From the NCBI GenBank assembly GCA_027491415.1, contig JAOZFH010000014.1, positions 1 through 32,908 of the forward strand: DNA of 32,908 nucleotides, in the 5' to 3' direction. The notes beneath the pieces were generated by a model. The model ran no database searches. It saw only the letters and a program-made list of their open reading frames with translations, and was not told the DNA's origin. The stretch's first letter is position 1. Every line of letters begins with the position of its first letter. The translations under genes were made by a program, and so were the position numbers. Positions 6,782 through 32,908 of the stretch are shown in pieces. Source of the DNA: Thermoproteota archaeon (GTDB taxonomy: Archaea > Korarchaeota > Korarchaeia > Korarchaeales > Korarchaeaceae).

Positions 6782-6873
6782 TGGCGCCGGGGGTGGGATT
6801 TGAACCCACGCGGCCCCCGAGGGGCCACCGGCTCTCAAGGCCGGCGCCTTGGTCCGGGCTAGGCTACCCCGGC
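6782..6873 (-). tRNA. tRNA-Ser(UGA), encoded CCA, no intron
   Basis: GCCGGGG acceptor, anticodon arm CCGGC-CT-TGA-GA-GCCGG, long variable arm, GGTTCAAATCC T arm, G discriminator plus CCA. Confidence 0.95.
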
Positions 6874-20211: not shown

Positions 20212-20844
20212 TTGCGCAGGATCATAGCGAGATCTGGGTGCAGCGAGGAGGGATTCAGGATCGCGGTAGAGGTCTTGGGGAGGGGCGGCCTCGTTATCTA
20301 CCCTACAGACACTACCTACGGGTTGGCAGCCGACGCGGAGAACAGGGAGGCCGTGCTGAAGGTCTACAGGGTCAAGGTGAGGCCGAGGAGCAACCCGCTC
20401 ACGATCGCGGTAGGCGACTTCGAGATGATGGCCCGCTACGCGGTCTTTGATGAGAGGCTCGAGAGCTTCATGAGGGAGTTCCTGCCCGGGGCCGTCACGT
20501 TCATTCTGCCGAAGACCGAGAAGGTCCCGGATGAGGTGAACCCCAGGGCGATAGGCGTGAGGATCCCAAACAACCCCATAGCCATCGAGCTGGTTCAGAG
20601 GTTCGGGAGGGCCATAACCGCCACCAGCGCCAACATCAGCGGAAGGCCCCCCGCCTACACGCCGGAAGAGGCTATGATGGCCCTCCCCGATGCCGACCTT
20701 ATAATAGATGCTGGCCCCCTCCCCAGGGGACTGGCCTCTACGGTCGTGGACCTCACCTCCGGGAGGCCAGAACTCGTGAGGCAGGGGCCCGTCCCCTTCG
20801 AGGAGATCCTGAAGAAGTTCCAGGAGGTGGTTGGGGGCGCTTGA
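20212..20844 (+). CDS. tsaC: L-threonylcarbamoyladenylate synthase, single-domain TsaC/YrdC type
   Basis: YPTDTTYGL, K.R..NPL, PGAVT, TSANISG, STVVD; TTG 20212 has GGAGGG SD (ATG 20182 alternative). Confidence 0.93.
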   Translation: MRRIIARSGCSEEGFRIAVEVLGRGGLVIYPTDTTYGLAADAENREAVLKVYRVKVRPRSNPLTIAVGDFEMMARYAVFDERLESFMREFLPGAVTFILPKTEKVPDEVNPRAIGVRIPNNPIAIELVQRFGRAITATSANISGRPPAYTPEEAMMALPDADLIIDAGPLPRGLASTVVDLTSGRPELVRQGPVPFEEILKKFQEVVGGA

Positions 20845-21851
20845 TCGCCCTGGGGATTGAGTCCACCGCTCACACCTTCGGCGTGGGCCTGGCGACCTCA
20901 GAGGGCGAGATATTGGCCAACGCCAGGTCCGTCCTCAAGTCCCCCGAAGGCGGGCTCAAGCCGGGTGAGGCTGCGGAGCACCACGCGAGGAATGCCAGGT
21001 CCGTCATCGAGACCGCCCTGAGGGAGGCTGACATCTCGCTGGGTGACGTTGACCTCGTCGGCTTCGCCCAGGGGCCCGGCCTGGGCCAGCCGCTCCAAGT
21101 GGGCGCCGTGGCAGCCAGGACGCTCGCGCTCCGCCTGGGCGTCCCACTAGTTGGGGTGAACCACCCGATAGCCCACATAGAGATCGGGAGGCTGGTTACC
21201 GGGGCTAGAGATCCCCTGGTGGTCTACGTCTCGGGCGGAAACACGCAGATCATGGTTCACCGCGAGAAGGGATTCAGGATCATCGGTGAGACCCTAGACA
21301 TAGGCCTGGGCAACGCTCAGGAGAAGGTGGGCCGCCTTCTGGGCTTCCCCTTTCCGGCAGGCCCCCACCTGGATCGCGTGGAGGGAGGCTGGGTCGACCT
21401 GCCTTACACCGTGAAGGGCATGGACCTCTCGTTCAGCGGCATCGTCACGGAGGTCGAGAGGAGGCTCAAGGAGGGAGCTGACAGGGACGACGTGGCCTGG
21501 AGCTTCGTGGAGGTCGCCTTCTCCATGCTGGCAGAGGTGACCGAGAGGGCCCTCGCGGCAACGGGTCGGGACGAGGTCCTGATCGTGGGAGGGGTAGCCG
21601 CCTCGCCCAGGCTCCAGGAGAAGATCAGGACCATGTGCGAGGCCAGGGGCGCCAGGATGCTGGTGCCCCCGCCAGAGTACCTCAGGGATAACGGGGCCAT
21701 GATCGCCTGGACGGCCCTCCTGGCCTACGCCCAGTTCGGTCCCCTCGGAGTGGAGGAGAGTGCTATCAAGCCGAGGTGGAGGCCTGACGAGGTCGAGTGG
21801 AAGCTCTTAGGGCCCGAGGAGTTGCGCTTAATACTGAGGGATCGTTCCTAG
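20841..21851 (+). CDS. kae1: KEOPS t6A threonylcarbamoyltransferase Kae1 (stand-alone)
   Basis: LGIESTAHT, GPGLG, NH..AHIEIG, YVSGGNTQ, GETLD, KGMDLSFSG, DNGAMIA. Confidence 0.97.
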   Translation: MIALGIESTAHTFGVGLATSEGEILANARSVLKSPEGGLKPGEAAEHHARNARSVIETALREADISLGDVDLVGFAQGPGLGQPLQVGAVAARTLALRLGVPLVGVNHPIAHIEIGRLVTGARDPLVVYVSGGNTQIMVHREKGFRIIGETLDIGLGNAQEKVGRLLGFPFPAGPHLDRVEGGWVDLPYTVKGMDLSFSGIVTEVERRLKEGADRDDVAWSFVEVAFSMLAEVTERALAATGRDEVLIVGGVAASPRLQEKIRTMCEARGARMLVPPPEYLRDNGAMIAWTALLAYAQFGPLGVEESAIKPRWRPDEVEWKLLGPEELRLILRDRS

Positions 21852-21868
21852 GTCCGGGTGCCCGGGCC

Positions 21869-22471
21869 TTGAAGATATGCCTCACAGGCTTCACCGGAAC
21901 TGGGAAGAGCACCCTAGCAAGGAGGCTCGCTGCCCACTACGGGCTGGACTACGTCTCCGGTGGAAACGTCCTCAAAAAGCTCATTGGCGGTGAAGAGGCT
22001 CTCAGTGACCCTGGATGGTGGGAGAGGGAGGGTGGTAAGCGCGCAATGGAGCTCAGGAAGCAGGACCCGAGCTTCGACAGGAGGGTGGACGAGGAACTCA
22101 TCAGGCTCGCGATGGAGAGGGGGGACGTGGTGCTGGACTCGTGGACCATGGCCTACCTGCTCGAGGCCGACGACAAGGTGGCGATCTTCCTCAAGGCTGA
22201 CCTCGGAGTCAGGGCCGAGAGGGTGGCCAAGAGGGATGGGACGAGCGTTGAGGAGGCCAAGGTGGCCATTCTCAGGAAGGATGCAGAGACCAAGAAGATC
22301 TACCTCTCCCTCTACGGATTCAGGCTCGGGGAGGACCTGAGCCCATTCAACCTAGTTCTCGACACCACCAGGCTGTCCGCGGACGAGACCTTCGACGTGG
22401 TCAGGAGGTTCATCGACTACTGGTTTAACGTCAGGCTCGGGAGGGGTGATCTCAATGATAAGGAGGAGTGA
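21869..22471 (+). CDS. cmk: Archaeal-type cytidylate kinase
   Basis: P-loop GFTGTGKST, VSGG, FDRRVD, RAERVAKRDG, LVLDT. Confidence 0.85.
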   Translation: MKICLTGFTGTGKSTLARRLAAHYGLDYVSGGNVLKKLIGGEEALSDPGWWEREGGKRAMELRKQDPSFDRRVDEELIRLAMERGDVVLDSWTMAYLLEADDKVAIFLKADLGVRAERVAKRDGTSVEEAKVAILRKDAETKKIYLSLYGFRLGEDLSPFNLVLDTTRLSADETFDVVRRFIDYWFNVRLGRGDLNDKEE

Positions 22472-23129
22472 GCTCGTCAAGATGATCGACCACACGCTCC
22501 TCAAGCCTCAGGCCACCGAGTCCGACGTGGCCGGGCTCGTGGAAGAGGGTCTGAAGTATGGGTTCCACTCGGTGGTGGTGAACCCGTACTACGTTCCCCT
22601 GGCCGCGAGGCTGGCGAGGGGTTCAAGCCTGAAGGTCTGCTCCGTCGTGGGCTTTCCGCTCGGCGCCACCCTGCCCGAGGTCAAGGCGCGTGAGGCCGAG
22701 CTGGTGGGCAGGCAGGGCGCCTCGGAGGTGGACATGGTGATCAACGTGGGCGCCCTGAGGAGCGGCCTGGACGACATCGTCCTCGAGGACGTGAGGGGGG
22801 TCGTCAGGGCCTTCAGGGGGGTGGTACCCGGGGGAGTCGTGAAAGTCATACTGGAGACGGGGCTGCTGAAACGAGAGGAGATAGAGGCGGCATGCGCCTT
22901 GGTGGAGGAGGCTGGCGCAGACTTCGTCAAGACATCCACCGGTTTTGGGCCGAGAGGCGCAACGGTCGAGGACGTGAGGCTCCTGAGGAACCTAGTGGGC
23001 GACAGGCTCGGGGTGAAGGCCGCCGGTGGAATAAGGACCTATGAGCAGGCCGTTGCCATGATAGAGGCCGGCGCAAACAGGATAGGGACCAGCTCAGGCG
23101 TCAAGATAGCGGAGGGGGCGCCCGAGTAA
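22455..23129 (+). CDS. deoC: Deoxyribose-phosphate aldolase
   Basis: IDHTLLKP, VVGFPLG, EVDMVIN, KVILET, FVKTSTGF, VKAAGGIR, RIGTS. Confidence 0.98.
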   Translation: MIRRSELVKMIDHTLLKPQATESDVAGLVEEGLKYGFHSVVVNPYYVPLAARLARGSSLKVCSVVGFPLGATLPEVKAREAELVGRQGASEVDMVINVGALRSGLDDIVLEDVRGVVRAFRGVVPGGVVKVILETGLLKREEIEAACALVEEAGADFVKTSTGFGPRGATVEDVRLLRNLVGDRLGVKAAGGIRTYEQAVAMIEAGANRIGTSSGVKIAEGAPE

Positions 23130-23182: not shown

Positions 23183-24076
23183 GTGAGGTTGGACTTGGGA
23201 GCAAAGGAGGGGCTTGTGGCAGAGGCCGAGGAGATAAGGCAGCGCTATCAGGTGGTCGGCCGGAGGGAAGAGCTGCGGAGGATACTGGCCGCCGCCAGGG
23301 CAGGGAAGCACATACTCCTCGAGGGGCCCGTGGGGGTGGGGAAGACCTTCCTGGCCAAGGTGGTGGCCTCGCACCTGGGCAGGGAATTCATTAGGGTAGA
23401 CGGAGACGAGAGGCTAACCGAGGCCAGGCTGATTGGATACTGGGATCCCCCGCTGGTCCTCAGCAGGGGGTACGTGCGGGAGGCCTTCGTCGAGGGTCCC
23501 CTGACCAGGGCCGCGCTGAGCGGGGGAGTCCTGTTCATCAACGAGCTGAACAGGCTCCCGGAGTCCGCTCAGAACGCCCTCCTCCCAGTGATGGATGAGG
23601 GCATAATCACGGTCCCACACCTGGGCGAGTTCAGGGCGAGGGAGGGCTTTCTGATAGTGGCAACCCAGAACCCGGAGGAGAGCATCGGCGTGACCAGGCT
23701 CTCGGAGGCGCTCAGGGATAGGTTCGTCCTCGTGAGGCTGGAGTACCAGTCAGAGGAAGAGGAGCGGGAGATTGTGAGGCTGAGGAGCGGAGTCGAGGAT
23801 CCGAGGATCGTCGGCACGGCCGTCAGGATAGTTCGGGAGACCAGGAGCGATCCCTCCATAAGGAGGGGCGCCTCCGTCAGATCGGCCATAGACCTCGCAT
23901 CGGTCGTGAGGCAGATCTGTGAGGACCCGACGGAGGGGGACTGGATCACCGCCGCGATCATGGTCCTCAGCCCCAGGGTTGAACTCCGCGACGGCGTGAC
24001 CGACGACGTCGAGTCTGTGATCAGGGACCTAGTTCTCAGGGCGTTACGGGGAGCGGCCGAGGGTTTTCGGGAGTAG
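23183..24076 (+). CDS. MoxR-like AAA+ ATPase
   Basis: Walker A GPVGVGKT, Walker B-like LFINELNR, ATQNP sensor 1, LSEALRDRF arginine finger, GASVR sensor 2. Confidence 0.93.
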   Translation: MRLDLGAKEGLVAEAEEIRQRYQVVGRREELRRILAAARAGKHILLEGPVGVGKTFLAKVVASHLGREFIRVDGDERLTEARLIGYWDPPLVLSRGYVREAFVEGPLTRAALSGGVLFINELNRLPESAQNALLPVMDEGIITVPHLGEFRAREGFLIVATQNPEESIGVTRLSEALRDRFVLVRLEYQSEEEEREIVRLRSGVEDPRIVGTAVRIVRETRSDPSIRRGASVRSAIDLASVVRQICEDPTEGDWITAAIMVLSPRVELRDGVTDDVESVIRDLVLRALRGAAEGFRE

Positions 24077-24095
24077 AGGGGCGGACCGGCGCCCC
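24061..24095 (+). other. Putative -1 programmed ribosomal frameshift signal
   Basis: G_GGT_TTT at 24061-24067 in the AAA+ frame; hairpin GGGGCG-GACCGG-CGCCCC at 24078-24095; -1 frame is open into the vWA ORF. Confidence 0.7.
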
Positions 24096-24096
24096 G

Positions 24097-25128
24097 ATGA
24101 CGCTCAGCCCGCCTCCGAGCACCTCCGGCGTCCCCAGCGAGCCTGAGCCCAGGCTGGGCGAGTGGCGAGAGATTGACCTAGACTACGAATCCCTGTACGC
24201 CAGGGCCGCCTCGGCGGCGTCGTCGGGCTCTCTGGGTGAGCTCATCTCTCTGGCAGCCCTGAGCAGCGTGGCCGTTGCTAGGGCGATCTCGGAGGGTGGG
24301 CTGGAGGGAACCTTTCTCAGGTCCTTGGAGAGAAACCCGGCGGCCGGCATGAGGCTTTACCGACAGATAAGGTGGCACCTCAACCCCGAGCTCAGGAGGA
24401 GGTTCAGGTCCCTCCTCAGCAAGGTCGCGCTGAGGAGTGGGGTGAGGATCGCCTCGCTTGCGTCCGGCAGGTCAATGCGCGTTCTAACGAGGTACGAGCC
24501 GGGCATGGACTTCGACGCCGAGGAGACCATACAGAGGCTGATCTCCAGCGGAAAGAGTCTGAAGGAACTCACCTACGAGGATGTCGTCGGGGTTAGGAGG
24601 GTGGAGCGGAGCCGCGGGGCTGTCATAATATTGGACGCAAGCGGCTCGATGACGGGGGGCAAGATCGCGGCCGCGGCGCTCTCCGCGGCCGTCGCAGCTC
24701 ACCTCATGAGGGCGGACGAGTACGCGATCGTCGCGTTCAACACGGAGCCCTTCGTCTTAAAGGGGGTGAGGGACAAGACCCCCATTGAGAGGGTGATCGA
24801 GGAGATAATGGACTTGGCCCCGCTTGGCTACACCAACATGAGGGGGGCCTTAGAGGTGGCCCTGAAGCAGGGCGCCCTTATCAAGAGGCCAGACAAGAGG
24901 TACGTCCTGATCACCGACGGGCTCTACAACGTTGGAGGAGATCCCCGGTCGGTGGCCAGGCGCCTCAGCGGGCTCAACGTGATAGGGGTGAGGGGATGGG
25001 GCGGGAGAAGGACCGCCGCCGGCATGCGGCTCTGCGCCGAGCTGGCGAAGATGGGAGGCGGGAGGTTCATAGAGCTGAGAAGCCCCCAGGGAGTCCCGAC
25101 GGCCGTGGCCAGGATTCTGGAGTCCTGA
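24097..25128 (+). CDS. von Willebrand factor A (MIDAS) domain protein, possibly made only as a frameshift fusion
   Basis: ILDASGSM (DxSxS), GYTN, LITDG; Pro/Ser-rich N-terminus. Confidence 0.9.
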   Translation: MTLSPPPSTSGVPSEPEPRLGEWREIDLDYESLYARAASAASSGSLGELISLAALSSVAVARAISEGGLEGTFLRSLERNPAAGMRLYRQIRWHLNPELRRRFRSLLSKVALRSGVRIASLASGRSMRVLTRYEPGMDFDAEETIQRLISSGKSLKELTYEDVVGVRRVERSRGAVIILDASGSMTGGKIAAAALSAAVAAHLMRADEYAIVAFNTEPFVLKGVRDKTPIERVIEEIMDLAPLGYTNMRGALEVALKQGALIKRPDKRYVLITDGLYNVGGDPRSVARRLSGLNVIGVRGWGGRRTAAGMRLCAELAKMGGGRFIELRSPQGVPTAVARILES

Positions 25129-25135
25129 CGCGCAC

Positions 25136-25142
25136 TTTATAT
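25136..25142 (+). promoter_or_regulatory. TATA box for tRNA-Leu and possibly the peptidase
   Basis: TTTATAT 25 nt upstream of the tRNA 5' end. Confidence 0.65.
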
Positions 25143-25163
25143 CCCGGGTGGAAGGTGCGGTCA

Positions 25164-27128
25164 TTGAGCGGGGGTGGCCGAGCCAGGTCAAAGGCGCGGG
25201 GTTTAGGACCCCGTCCCTCAGGGGTTCGTGGGTTCGAATCCCACCCCCCGCACCACCTGATCGCGATCTCTCTCCTGATTCTGATCGCCCCCTCCCTCTC
25301 CCCCGCGGGAGCGCCAGGGTTCCCCCAGGCCGGTGGGTGCCTCCGCCCGAGCTACAGGATGAGGGTGGAGATCTCCCCATCCCTCGACGCCGTGTCCGGC
25401 TGGGAGCAGGTCACGTGGCAGAACTGCGAAGGGGAGGCCGTGAGCGAGGTACACCTGAGGCTGTATCCCAACGCCTTCTCGTCGAGCGGCGGACAGATTG
25501 AGGTGCTGTCGGTGTCCTCACCGGGAAGGAACTCGACCTCTGGCGTCGGGGGGCCCGATGACACTGTCCTAGAGGTCTCCCTTGACCCCCCCGTGGCACA
25601 TGGGGAGAGGGTGACCATCGAGATCGAGTTCACGGTCCACGTCCCGGAGGTGGACGACAGGTTCGGCCGCAGCGAGGGGGTGCTCGCCCTGGGAAACTGG
25701 TTTCCGATACTCTCCGTGCTGAGGAACGGGTCTTGGGTGGATCACCCTTACTTCCACGACGGGGAGTGCTTTTTCAGCAAGTCGTCCGACTTTCTCGTTG
25801 AGCTCGTGGTTCCAGGTGACCTAGTGGTTGCGGCCACGGGTGAGCTGACCTCGGAGAGCCGGCTGGGAGATGGAAGGGTCGTTCAGATGTGGGTGGCCCA
25901 CGGGGTGAGGGACTTCGCGCTGGTCGCGAGTCCCCGCTTCGAGGTCTCGCGGGAGAGGGTAGGAGGGGTGACCGTATACTCCTACTACCTGCCCGAGCAC
26001 GCCGAGGGAGGGAAGAGAGTCCTAGAGTACGCCGTCAACGCGATACGCGTCTTCAGTGAGCACTTCACGCCCTACCCCTTCTCCGCCTTCCGGGTGGCGG
26101 AGGTGCACGGCTGGTTCGGCGGGATGGAGTACCCCCAGCTCATCATGGTGTCCAGCTCGTTCTACGAGGGCGACGAGCGGACGCTCGAGATGATCGTAGC
26201 GCATGAGACGGCGCATCAGTGGTGGTACTCCCTCGTGGGCAACGATCAGTGGGAGGAGCCGTGGCTCGACGAGTCACTGGCGGAGTATTCACAGATCCTC
26301 TACTTTGAGTGGGTCTACGGTCCGGAAAATGCAGAGATGGCATTCTGGGACTTCGTGGGGAACCCCTACAGGTTCTACATCGACTCGGGAGAGCCGGCCC
26401 TGCCTGTCGCGGTCAGCGTCGGCGAGGTCTCCGACGCCCCCGGGCGGTACAGGGCGGCGGTGTACCTGAGGGGCGCCTGGGCCCTGAGGATGCTGCGCGG
26501 GATCCTGGGGGACGAGTCCTTCTTCCGTGCGCTGAGGGTGTACGCGGAGGAGAACGCCTTCGGCGTGGCCACCGGCGAAGACCTCGTATCGGCGTTCGAG
26601 GAGTCATGGGGCGGGGATCTCGACTGGTTCTTCGAGGAGTGGGTGTACTGGGGGTGCGTCCCGTCCTATCGGGTGGCCAGGGTCGGGAGGGTAGCCGAGA
26701 GGTCTTGGATGGAGGTGTACCAGTCCCTCGAGGGCTGTGACGGCGGCGCCCCGAAGTCAATGCCAGTCGAGTTCGAGGTGGACCCCTGCGGACGGGTAGA
26801 GTCCTGGATCAACTCCACCTGGGCGAACGTGAGCCTCCCGGAGGGCTGCGAGCCCGAGGTCGTGTTGCCTGACCCAGACGACGAAATCCCTGGGGCAGAC
26901 TTCGGGTGGTCGGCTCGGAGCGACGGCGTCCCTGCGACGCCGGGAGGTTGTTCGCCCGGCGGGAGCTCATCTAGGGAGTGGACATCGCCGGTCTCTATGG
27001 TCCTGATCCTCTCGGGGACGGCGCTGACCCTGGCCTTCGCGATCTGGCTGGGCAGGACCAGGTCGAGGGCCTCGTCGGAGTCGTGGCCGAGTCAGGAGGA
27101 GGTGGATGGTGCGGCCGCCGGGATTTGA
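25164..27128 (+). CDS. M1-family zinc aminopeptidase, probably secreted and C-terminally membrane anchored; start uncertain
   Basis: GGMEYP, HETAHQWW...WLDESLAEY (HExxH-x18-E), VYLRGA; hydrophobic N segment LIAISLLILIA and C-terminal TM. Confidence 0.85.
   Translation: MSGGGRARSKARGLGPRPSGVRGFESHPPHHLIAISLLILIAPSLSPAGAPGFPQAGGCLRPSYRMRVEISPSLDAVSGWEQVTWQNCEGEAVSEVHLRLYPNAFSSSGGQIEVLSVSSPGRNSTSGVGGPDDTVLEVSLDPPVAHGERVTIEIEFTVHVPEVDDRFGRSEGVLALGNWFPILSVLRNGSWVDHPYFHDGECFFSKSSDFLVELVVPGDLVVAATGELTSESRLGDGRVVQMWVAHGVRDFALVASPRFEVSRERVGGVTVYSYYLPEHAEGGKRVLEYAVNAIRVFSEHFTPYPFSAFRVAEVHGWFGGMEYPQLIMVSSSFYEGDERTLEMIVAHETAHQWWYSLVGNDQWEEPWLDESLAEYSQILYFEWVYGPENAEMAFWDFVGNPYRFYIDSGEPALPVAVSVGEVSDAPGRYRAAVYLRGAWALRMLRGILGDESFFRALRVYAEENAFGVATGEDLVSAFEESWGGDLDWFFEEWVYWGCVPSYRVARVGRVAERSWMEVYQSLEGCDGGAPKSMPVEFEVDPCGRVESWINSTWANVSLPEGCEPEVVLPDPDDEIPGADFGWSARSDGVPATPGGCSPGGSSSREWTSPVSMVLILSGTALTLAFAIWLGRTRSRASSESWPSQEEVDGAAAGI
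25168..25255 (+). tRNA. tRNA-Leu(UAG), encoded CCA, no intron
   Basis: GCGGGGG acceptor, anticodon arm CGGGG-TT-TAG-GA-CCCCG, long variable arm, GGTTCGAATCC, ACCA end. Confidence 0.95.
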
Positions 27129-27203
27129 ACCCGGGTCTGGAGCGCTCCGCGCCTCGAGAGGCTTGGCAGGCTCCCATCCTAGACCAGGCTAGACTACGGC
27201 CGC
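27107..27203 (-). tRNA. tRNA-Gly(GCC) with 19-nt intron at 37/38 (27145-27163), encoded CCA
   Basis: GCGGCCG acceptor, GGAGC-CT-GCC-A[AGCCTCTCGAGGCGCGGAG]C-GCTCC, GGTTCAAATCC, ACCA; full bulge-helix-bulge. Confidence 0.95.
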
Positions 27204-32089: not shown

Positions 32090-32908
32090 GACCGGTTGAT
32101 CCTGCCGGAGGGGACCCCTAGCGGGCTCGCACTAAGCCATGCAAGTCGGCTGGGGGCCATTCCGCCCCTGGCGGCGCACGGCTCAGTAATACACGGTCAA
32201 CCTACCCTGGGGACCGGGATAACCTCGGGAAACTGAGGCTAATCCCGGATAGGGGCCGGGTACTGGAATGTCCCGGCCCCGAAAGTAGGCGGGGGGAGCC
32301 CCGCTGAGGCCCCAGGATGGGACCGTGGCCTATCAGGTAGTAGGTGGGGTAACGGCCCACCTAGCCTGAGACGGGTGCGGGCGGTGGGAGCCGGAGCCCG
32401 GAGATGGGCACTGAGACAAGGGCCCAGGCCCTAAGGGGCGCAGCAGGCGGGAAACTTCCGCAATGCGCGAAAGCGTGACGGAGTGAGCCCGCGTGCCGCC
32501 CGCTGAGGGCGGCTGTCCCCGGGTGTAAACAGCCCGGGACAGGAAGGGGAGGGCAAGGCTGGTGCCAGCCGCCGCGGTAAAACCAGCTCCTCGAGGGGTC
32601 CCCACGCATACTGGGCCTAAAGCGTCCGTAGCCGGCCCCGCAAGTCCTCGGTTAAATCCACCGGAAGACCGGTGGGCTGCCGGGGATACTGCGGGGCTAG
32701 GGAGCTGGAGGGGCCGGGGGTATTCCGGGGGGAGCGGTAAAATGCGTAGATCCCCGGAGGACCACCGGTGGCGAAGGCGCCCGGCTGGAACGCGTCCGAC
32801 GGTGAGGGACGAAAGCTGGGGGAGCAAACCGGATTAGATACCCGGGTAGTCCCAGCCGTAAACGATGCCGGCTAGGTGCCGGCCGAGGTTTCGGCCTCGG
32901 CCGGTGTC
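32090..32908 (+). rRNA. rrs: 16S rRNA, 5' portion, truncated by window end
   Basis: CCGGTTGATCCTGCCGGA, CTAAGCCATGCAAGTC, GTGCCAGCCGCCGCGGTAA, GGATTAGATACCCGGGTAGTCC; exact 5' end approximate. Confidence 0.99.

Follow-up and report, generated by a model that had tools for sequence, protein, structure and literature searches.

The DNA studied here, called the window throughout, is a stretch of 32,908 nucleotides (nt) of contig JAOZFH010000014.1 from the korarchaeal genome GCA_027491415.1 (Thermoproteota archaeon). The system in question is a pair of adjoining genes in it, the first encoding an AAA+ ATPase and the second a von Willebrand factor A (vWA) protein. Comparison with orthologous loci makes it fairly likely that the junction of the two genes is a programmed −1 frameshift cassette, conserved across Korarchaeota, which probably operates together with coupled initiation at the ATG of the vWA gene. 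A preliminary description of the locus, made from the letters of the window alone, had proposed such a frameshift and had named a conserved heptamer, a covarying hairpin, a constant −1 offset and in-frame fused genes as marks to be looked for among the orthologues.

According to the proposed mechanism, most ribosomes translating the ATPase gene would end at the TAG at 24074 and release the short ATPase, and a fraction of them would slip back by one base on the heptamer G_GGT_TTT, the invariant part of the slip being the re-pairing of tRNA-Phe on T_TTY. The slipped ribosomes would then read ten trans-frame codons through a GC hairpin into the vWA open reading frame (ORF) and produce a long ATPase–linker–vWA chain of 637–648 amino acids (aa), with the architecture and length seen in single-gene relatives. 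The hairpin, which lies 10 nt downstream of the heptamer, is the likely stimulator, and the conserved ATG behind it probably also yields free vWA protein by termination-coupled re-initiation, giving up to three products. That slippage takes place, how efficient it is, what the hairpin and the ATG contribute and what the resulting complex does are inferred from comparative and computational evidence.

Within the genome of the window, a canonical heptamer stands in phase among the final 15 codons of 95 of 1642 crude ORFs, and at seven gene pairs a heptamer is combined with a −1 frame that runs open into the neighbour. The pattern in this genome alone is not beyond chance, and the case therefore rests on conservation across relatives.

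Frame offset and candidate slip site at the junction

The frame relation between the two genes was compared at 47 distinct orthologous junctions, for which the loci from genomes, named genomes and metagenomes were pooled and de-duplicated and locus L104 was added. The results showed that 44 of the 47 junctions are at −1, two are in-frame fusions and one is at +1, in agreement with the constant offset anticipated by the preliminary description. In the genome set, the vWA gene lay at −1 to the ATPase gene at 29 of 30 loci by tblastn, the thirtieth (L006) being an in-frame ORF; the 33 named genome loci with an adjacent ATPase comprised 30 at −1, two in frame and one at +1; and all 19 metagenome loci were at −1. 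The named set (L038–L071) represents 34 of the 36 loci returned, L072 and L073 having been dropped as weak bacterial matches, and one of its members, L070, is without upstream sequence. The metagenome set (L074–L092) represents 19 of 29 loci, L093–L102 having been dropped as partial matches of ≤81 residues. The paralogous AAA/vWA loci of the window genome (L032–L037) were kept outside the junction comparison. The vWA orthologue is nearly universal in Korarchaeota (42 of 43 species genomes), and the named relatives include Candidatus Korarchaeum and Candidatus Methanodesulfokora; outside the phylum, the orthologue was found in a Hadarchaeota genome (L068) and, in fused form, in a Jordarchaeia genome (L069).

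These data bear on the possibility that an assembly or sequencing indel has split a truly fused gene. The window comes from a draft genome of 63 contigs, and homopolymer runs are prone to error; however, independent assemblies, the one-contig genome G013 among them, show the same offset at 44 distinct junctions. Furthermore, contigs from three separate sequencing runs cross the junction with no letters gained or lost; the DNA of these contigs belongs to a relative that is about 93% alike, and three of the four runs covered the junction (X4 did not). We give an indel artefact practically no weight, and in this respect the frame change first described in the window stands.

The ATPase ORF ends GAG GGT TTT CGG GAG TAG, and G_GGT_TTT was found in the phase and at the place first described, two codons before the stop. 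Among the relatives, an in-phase T_TTY was present at all 44 distinct −1-offset junctions. G_GAT_TTY was the heptamer in 21 of the 43 tabulated junctions, G_GGT_TTY in 10, A_AAT_TTY in seven, G_GTT_TTY in three and T_TTT_TTA in two, L104 being the third locus with T_TTT_TTA and bringing the total to 44. The expected conservation of the heptamer thus held for its T_TTY core but not for the full canonical X_XXY_YYZ form, which was found in only 20 of 44 junctions. The heptamer of the window is canonical as claimed, but its GGG is private to the window genome: the four congeners have the non-canonical G_GAT_TTT, which was also found in the metagenomic contig L074 (96% identical) and in the contigs of the three sequencing runs. 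The form in the congeners need not be read as a loss of function, because pea enation mosaic virus naturally frameshifts on G_GAU_UUU, and frameshifting in that virus reached 112% of the wild-type level when the site was converted into G_GGU_UUU (PMC4737148).

The T that precedes TTY (24064 in the window) occupies a third codon position and was invariant in 43 of 43 junctions, while positions 1 and 2 of the same codon vary. In the 276 well-occupied codon columns of the ATPase alignment (14 representatives below 85% identity), an invariant third position occurred only at one Trp and one Met. The constraint on the T-run therefore acts on the nucleotides and not on the amino acids. This finding is relevant to a different explanation, in which the two are ordinary genes under strict translational coupling and no functional frameshift takes place. 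The hairpin would then mask the vWA start, a ribosome ending the ATPase would melt it and re-initiate at the ATG, two proteins would be made in matched amounts, and the T-run would encode a conserved Asp/Gly/Asn-Phe at the C-terminus of the ATPase. Coupling leaves the invariant synonymous T unexplained, and the Phe is missing from the fused orthologue L006.

RNAalifold, run on 20 sequences, found no conserved pairing partner for the T-run and the hairpin as the only structure. Participation of the T-run in a larger RNA structure was rejected on this result, and the lack of a partner also speaks against coupling as the cause of its conservation. An oligo-T terminator was likewise rejected, since it would sit upstream of the ATPase stop codon. 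Transcriptional slippage is implausible in our judgement, a run of three to six T residues being presumably too short.

As claimed in the preliminary description, a −1 slip leads directly into the vWA gene: the −1 frame of the window is open from the heptamer into the vWA ORF, and at 44 of 44 junctions the −1 reading can run on from the slip site into the vWA gene without meeting a stop. Of the 41 hairpin loci, 0 had a stop between the slip site and the ATG in the −1 frame, 23 had one in the 0 frame and 19 had one in the +1 frame. Upstream of the heptamer, a −1 stop was found within 10 codons in 25 of 43 junctions, and in 12 of 43 it lies only 0–1 codon before the heptamer. Coupling does not explain why −1 stops are lacking from the motif to the ATG and abundant just upstream.

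Divergent lineages provide a further comparison. In the deep korarchaeal genomes G029–G031, the motif is T_TTT_TTA and the hairpin is missing from all three loci. The −1 translations of L026 (G031) and L104 (G029) align from residue 2/3, at the slip site; those differences between them that were read in this initial part leave the −1 amino acids unchanged, and the first ATG of L026 is at residue 44. In L028 (G030), the 215 nt past the heptamer contain neither ATG nor GTG and one TTG only, and profile homology to the vWA protein begins about 120 nt after the heptamer. In the hadarchaeal locus L068, the hairpin is 16 nt long and the conserved ATG lies outside the vWA frame, yet the ATPase-to-vWA offset is still −1. 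The T_TTT_TTA loci and L068 fit frameshifting and not a start at the ATG. For coupling, the difficulty in the former is −1 coding conservation from the slip site with no ATG or GTG nearby, and in the latter an offset that is kept although the ATG is out of frame. Dependence of the −1 ORF on the upstream ORF is suggested by the sequences of L026, L028 and L068 only.

Hairpin, spacer and vWA start codon

The 6-bp all-GC hairpin reported 10 nt downstream of the heptamer was found as described and is present in the minimum-energy fold of the window. The spacer between heptamer and stem is 10 nt in 41 of 41 hairpin-bearing loci, and the position of the 0-frame stop varies among relatives; coupling leaves this fixed distance between motif and hairpin unexplained. 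In an alignment of 37 distinct sequences, standard pairing was kept in 96.2% of cells and compensatory changes were found in five of the six pairs, bearing out the covariation expected of the orthologues. Cells with a double change numbered 30, compared with 7.0 ± 2.1 in shuffles, and 0 of 500 shuffles reached 30; in controls in which the partner was moved by 1–3 columns, pairing fell to 39–69%. The length of the hairpin is 15, 18, 21 or 24 nt, changing in steps of three, with the 16-nt hairpin of L068 as the exception, and 1 nt separates hairpin and ATG in all hairpin loci.

The compensatory changes indicate ongoing selection on the hairpin. They are difficult to reconcile with the view that the junction is a relic of an ancient gene fission, in which an indel in the korarchaeal ancestor left the offset and the T-run behind as functionless scars. 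Single-chain fused relatives are common outside the phylum and a T-run is a plausible indel site, as that view would have it. However, although synonymous sites are saturated at the 33–60% protein identity between these lineages, the lineages have kept the motif, the spacer and an unbroken −1 frame, and the type of slip motif has changed between classes while remaining slippery. We consider a functionless relic very unlikely.

The start of the vWA gene was compared with the other starts of the genome. GAGG peaks genome-wide at 7–10 nt before starts, and by this measure the ATG at 24097 has no canonical Shine–Dalgarno (SD) sequence at normal spacing. The sole GAGG before it is 17 nt away and half within the stem, in keeping with the preliminary description; the candidacy of this GAGG as the SD of the vWA ATG was judged unlikely, its distance being 14–17 nt from the ATG. 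The anti-SD of the window genome itself is unreadable because the 16S rRNA gene is cut by the contig end, and the 3′ end of 16S rRNA was taken from the relative G013. The 5′ part of the gene lies at 32092–32887 of the window (model positions 4–828).

Several observations weigh against frameshifting, and a number of them favour coupling. The heptamer is non-canonical (G_GAT_TTY or G_GTT_TTY) in 24 of 44 junctions. The usual spacer between a −1 slip site and its stimulator is 5–9 nt, and the 10 nt here is longer. The 76-nt junction has a fold energy z of −0.35, with 67 of 200 shuffles folding as well; this energy is ordinary for a GC-rich sequence and the measure was therefore dropped in favour of covariation. 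For the open −1 frame, 12 representatives jointly give a probability of 0.007 when the shuffles are confined to the free letters of spacer and loop, a modest value, because the stem fixes most trans-frame codons and few are free. The relatives share ancestry and are not independent, and L068 and the T_TTT_TTA group comprise few genomes, all of them metagenome-assembled. In L043 (JAOZFG010000017.1, locus positions ~2440–2540), a six-T run is found without a hairpin and with the vWA gene at +1; the vWA frame is open there from 12 codons upstream, and the first ATG is about 25 codons after the ATPase stop. A +1 slip variant (Phe codon, CGA, TAA), independent initiation of the vWA gene or faulty assembly could each account for this locus.

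The remaining points of this kind concern the start codon. A conserved ATG follows the hairpin directly; it is in the vWA frame at 40 of the 41 loci with a hairpin, and at 18 of the 41 it overlaps the 0-frame stop as ATGA, a classic sign of coupling. The locus of Korarchaeum cryptofilum (L021, G013) combines an ATGA overlap with G_GAT_TTT. Every 0-frame stop lies ≤36 nt after the motif, near the hairpin. The hairpin, one nt from the ATG, carries the GAGG in its 5′ arm, and the absence of a free SD at normal spacing fits re-initiation. Co-location of stop and start is a published criterion for coupling, and both mechanisms may coexist (PMC3711429). Moreover, an ATGA overlap would give a −1 offset and indels of 3n without slippage; since it alone could hold the offset at −1, the other features weigh more. 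Because the ATG is conserved and in frame at nearly all of these loci, free vWA protein is likely to be made by coupled re-initiation as well, a role that the preliminary description underplayed. Coupling in the absence of any functional frameshift nevertheless seems to us rather improbable, although we attach some weight to it.

Fused relatives, gene products and neighbouring genes

In-frame fused orthologues, the remaining mark named at the outset, were found. In L006, a single open frame runs over 664 codons; its linker is acidic, and T-run and hairpin are both missing. L069 has ATPase and vWA in frame. An exhaustive HMMER search of 1.84 billion entries with the L006 protein was evaluated for the best 150 related clusters, and the result showed that 53 of these are AAA–vWA single chains with a median length of 633 aa. 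Of the others, 72 have just the ATPase domain, 15 just the vWA domain, and 10 are giant proteins resembling midasin; a word-based search for longer proteins had given just one fused relative. The two frames of the window are colinear on the fused protein P0003 (residues 8–285 and 322–620), and the predicted product of 637–648 aa is close to the fused-cluster median. The fused relatives are named 'AAA family ATPase', 'MoxR-like ATPase' or 'GvpN' in their sources. A second AAA–vWA paralogue of 632 codons, fused in frame, was seen in two of the deep korarchaeal genomes (L106, G030:C65; L107, G029:C8), one copy having a TAG inside the profile-search match.

The ATPase matched Pfam AAA_5 with 88.6 bits (cut-off 22) and AAA_3 with 66.6 bits (cut-off 27), and the second protein matched VWA_2 with 40.2 bits (cut-off 27) and also VWA_CoxE. 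With AAA_5 and AAA_3 above cut-off and an adjoining vWA gene with a MIDAS motif, the pair is of the MoxR type, as first described. The MIDAS residues D180, S182, S184, T246 and D274 are invariant in the vWA alignment A1. The best families of the ATPase were AAA_5, MadB and GvpN, and the Pfam Mg_chelatase match on it is limited to residues 24–64. An identity as BchD–ChlD chelatase or cobaltochelatase was rejected at 32.4 bits for TIGR02031 (cut-off 499.55) and 34.1 bits for TIGR02442 (cut-off 779.45). Among solved structures, the best match of the ATPase was to the AAA modules of midasin (E 4.4e-43), followed by NorQ (1.8e-18), the MoxR-type 2r44 and CbbQ; a PDB sequence search with the vWA protein gave no match at E ≤ 0.01. 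Membership in midasin itself was rejected, as the ATPase has one AAA module in 297 aa and resembles single midasin modules only. The predicted long product may be described as a one-module counterpart of the midasin layout, in which a single AAA_5 module is connected through a linker to a MIDAS domain.

Two side observations concern this family. The Walker B motif of the ATPase (window 23534–23554, protein residues ~118–124) reads Asn-Glu and not the usual Asp-Glu, and a simple pattern search in the best 150 related clusters found NE in 44 and DE in one. Relatives of the ATPase are also present in the Asgard genomes of Jordarchaeia (fused) and Freyarchaeota, which, together with the structural match to midasin, may bear on the origin of midasin.

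The product sizes given in the preliminary description, 297 and 648 aa, are right for the ORF as listed, starting at 23183. From the sequence, however, the true start is probably the GTG at 23216, which has a GGAGG 6 nt before it, and the products would then be 286 and 637 aa; orthologue alignments of the ATPase start at residues 9–17 of the 297-aa ORF. Korarchaeal pairs of this kind are annotated as two genes ('hypothetical protein'), and the probable product of 637–648 aa is therefore absent from proteomes. The features of the locus are listed in Table 1.

Table 1. Positions of the junction elements and the two genes in the window
Feature	Coordinates	Strand	Remarks
AAA+ ATPase ORF, AAA_5/MoxR-like	23183..24076	+	0 frame, 297 aa; nearest solved relative midasin
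Shine–Dalgarno-like GGAGG	23205..23209	+	serves the predicted ATPase start at 23216
Candidate slip site G_GGT_TTT	24061..24067	+	X_XXY_YYZ phase of the ATPase frame
Trans-frame segment	24067..24096	+	ten −1 codons from slip site to ATG; open in all relatives
10-nt spacer ending GA	24068..24077	+	holds the 0-frame stop TAG (24074–24076)
GC hairpin, 6-bp stem and 6-nt loop	24078..24095	+	candidate frameshift stimulator and/or vWA start mask
vWA/MIDAS ORF	24097..25128	+	−1 frame, 343 aa; Pro/Ser-rich start, intact MIDAS motif

The gene row upstream of the pair is tightly packed. The ORFs at 20841–21851 and 21797–22471 share 55 nt, and the next ORF (22446–23129) overlaps by 26 nt and stops 54 nt before the ATPase ORF. 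A tRNA-Leu(TAG) gene lies at 25168–25255, 40 nt 3′ of the vWA stop. It is crossed by a 710-aa ORF (24996–27128), the real start of which is therefore further downstream; a reading of its translation found an HExxH-type motif, and the product looks like a metallopeptidase. A tRNA-Gly(GCC) gene was called at 27107–27203 with 97 nt, a length that suggests an intron, and a tRNA-Ser(TGA) gene of 92 nt lies at 6782–6873.

Comparison with known systems

The precedent to which the preliminary description had appealed, the frameshifted chlD genes (fs-chlD) of Mg/Co chelatases, is real: an AAA+ and a vWA/integrin-I domain are joined there by a −1 frameshift, the shorter product comprises nothing but the ATPase, relatives with both domains in a single fused gene are known, and archaeal examples and a downstream structure have been described (PMC3711429, PMC9227772). 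The ATPase of the window belongs to another AAA+ clade, scoring 32 bits against the BchD–ChlD cut-off of 499.55. The slip sites also differ, those of fs-chlD being A-rich (A_AAA_AAR) and those of the window family T_TTY, and the genera given for fs-chlD are Methanocaldococcus, Methanococcus and bacteria, not Korarchaeota (PMC3711429, PMC5009743). Unlike fs-chlD, the window family has a conserved ATG after the site. Documented archaeal −1 cases are few; a 2016 review names the chelatase genes, certain tail genes of viruses and one possible example from Sulfolobus (PMC5009743). In the literature searched, no description was found of recoding in MoxR/AAA_5–vWA genes or in Korarchaeota; published chlD lists could include korarchaeal genes. 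The kind of event, AAA+ joined to vWA through a −1 slip, is known from chlD; new here would be its occurrence throughout a phylum, in a different AAA+ clade and with different signals. If true, this would be the first case of recoding in the MoxR/midasin branch of AAA+ proteins, and it would imply that recoding came to link, or continued to link, an AAA+ motor and its vWA adaptor in genes other than those of chelatases, in the clade closest to the midasin of eukaryotes.

RavA–ViaA, NorQ–NorD and CbbQ–CbbO resemble the window pair in that an AAA_5/AAA_3-type ATPase gene adjoins a vWA gene. In these three systems the partners are separate polypeptides. Single-chain fusion, in contrast, is common among the relatives of the window family.

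The slip sites G_GGU_UUU and G_GAU_UUU of luteoviruses and umbraviruses are the two commonest heptamers of the family, in which they interchange among close relatives; the viral stop lies 3 nt after the slip site, and the korarchaeal stop lies 0–6 nt after it in 17 of 41 loci (PMC4737148, PMC5009743). The viral sites act on eukaryotic ribosomes with other downstream elements; by analogy, such sites may be active on archaeal ribosomes. If the frameshift is real, archaeal ribosomes would be slipping at high temperature on sites familiar elsewhere from plant RNA viruses, and a compact covarying stimulator combined with interchangeable slip sites would suit the study of archaeal slippage at heat.

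Midasin (Rea1/Mdn1) shares with the predicted long product an AAA_5-type ring and a C-terminal MIDAS domain on a linker, and the linker of L006 is acidic. It differs in being one chain of about 4700–4900 residues (PDB chain lengths). The midasin chain has six tandem AAA modules, a linker, a D/E-rich region and the MIDAS domain. The window family has one module per chain, and its ring would presumably form by oligomerisation; the role of midasin in eukaryotic ribosome biogenesis does not transfer to the family. As to what the fusion does, we would guess that it forms a ring of the 'mini-midasin' type, to which a MIDAS domain is tethered. A more elaborate proposal, possible but in our view doubtful, is that an anciently conserved −1 frameshift sets the stoichiometry of such a ring throughout the phylum: free ATPase and ATPase–MIDAS subunits would share one ring with a limited number of tethered MIDAS domains, and the hairpin would be both stimulator and gate of the coupled start, with three products per mRNA. 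If the frameshift reading is true, the korarchaeal pair would offer, beside the giant chain of midasin, a small and tractable model for a MIDAS domain tethered to its own ATPase ring.

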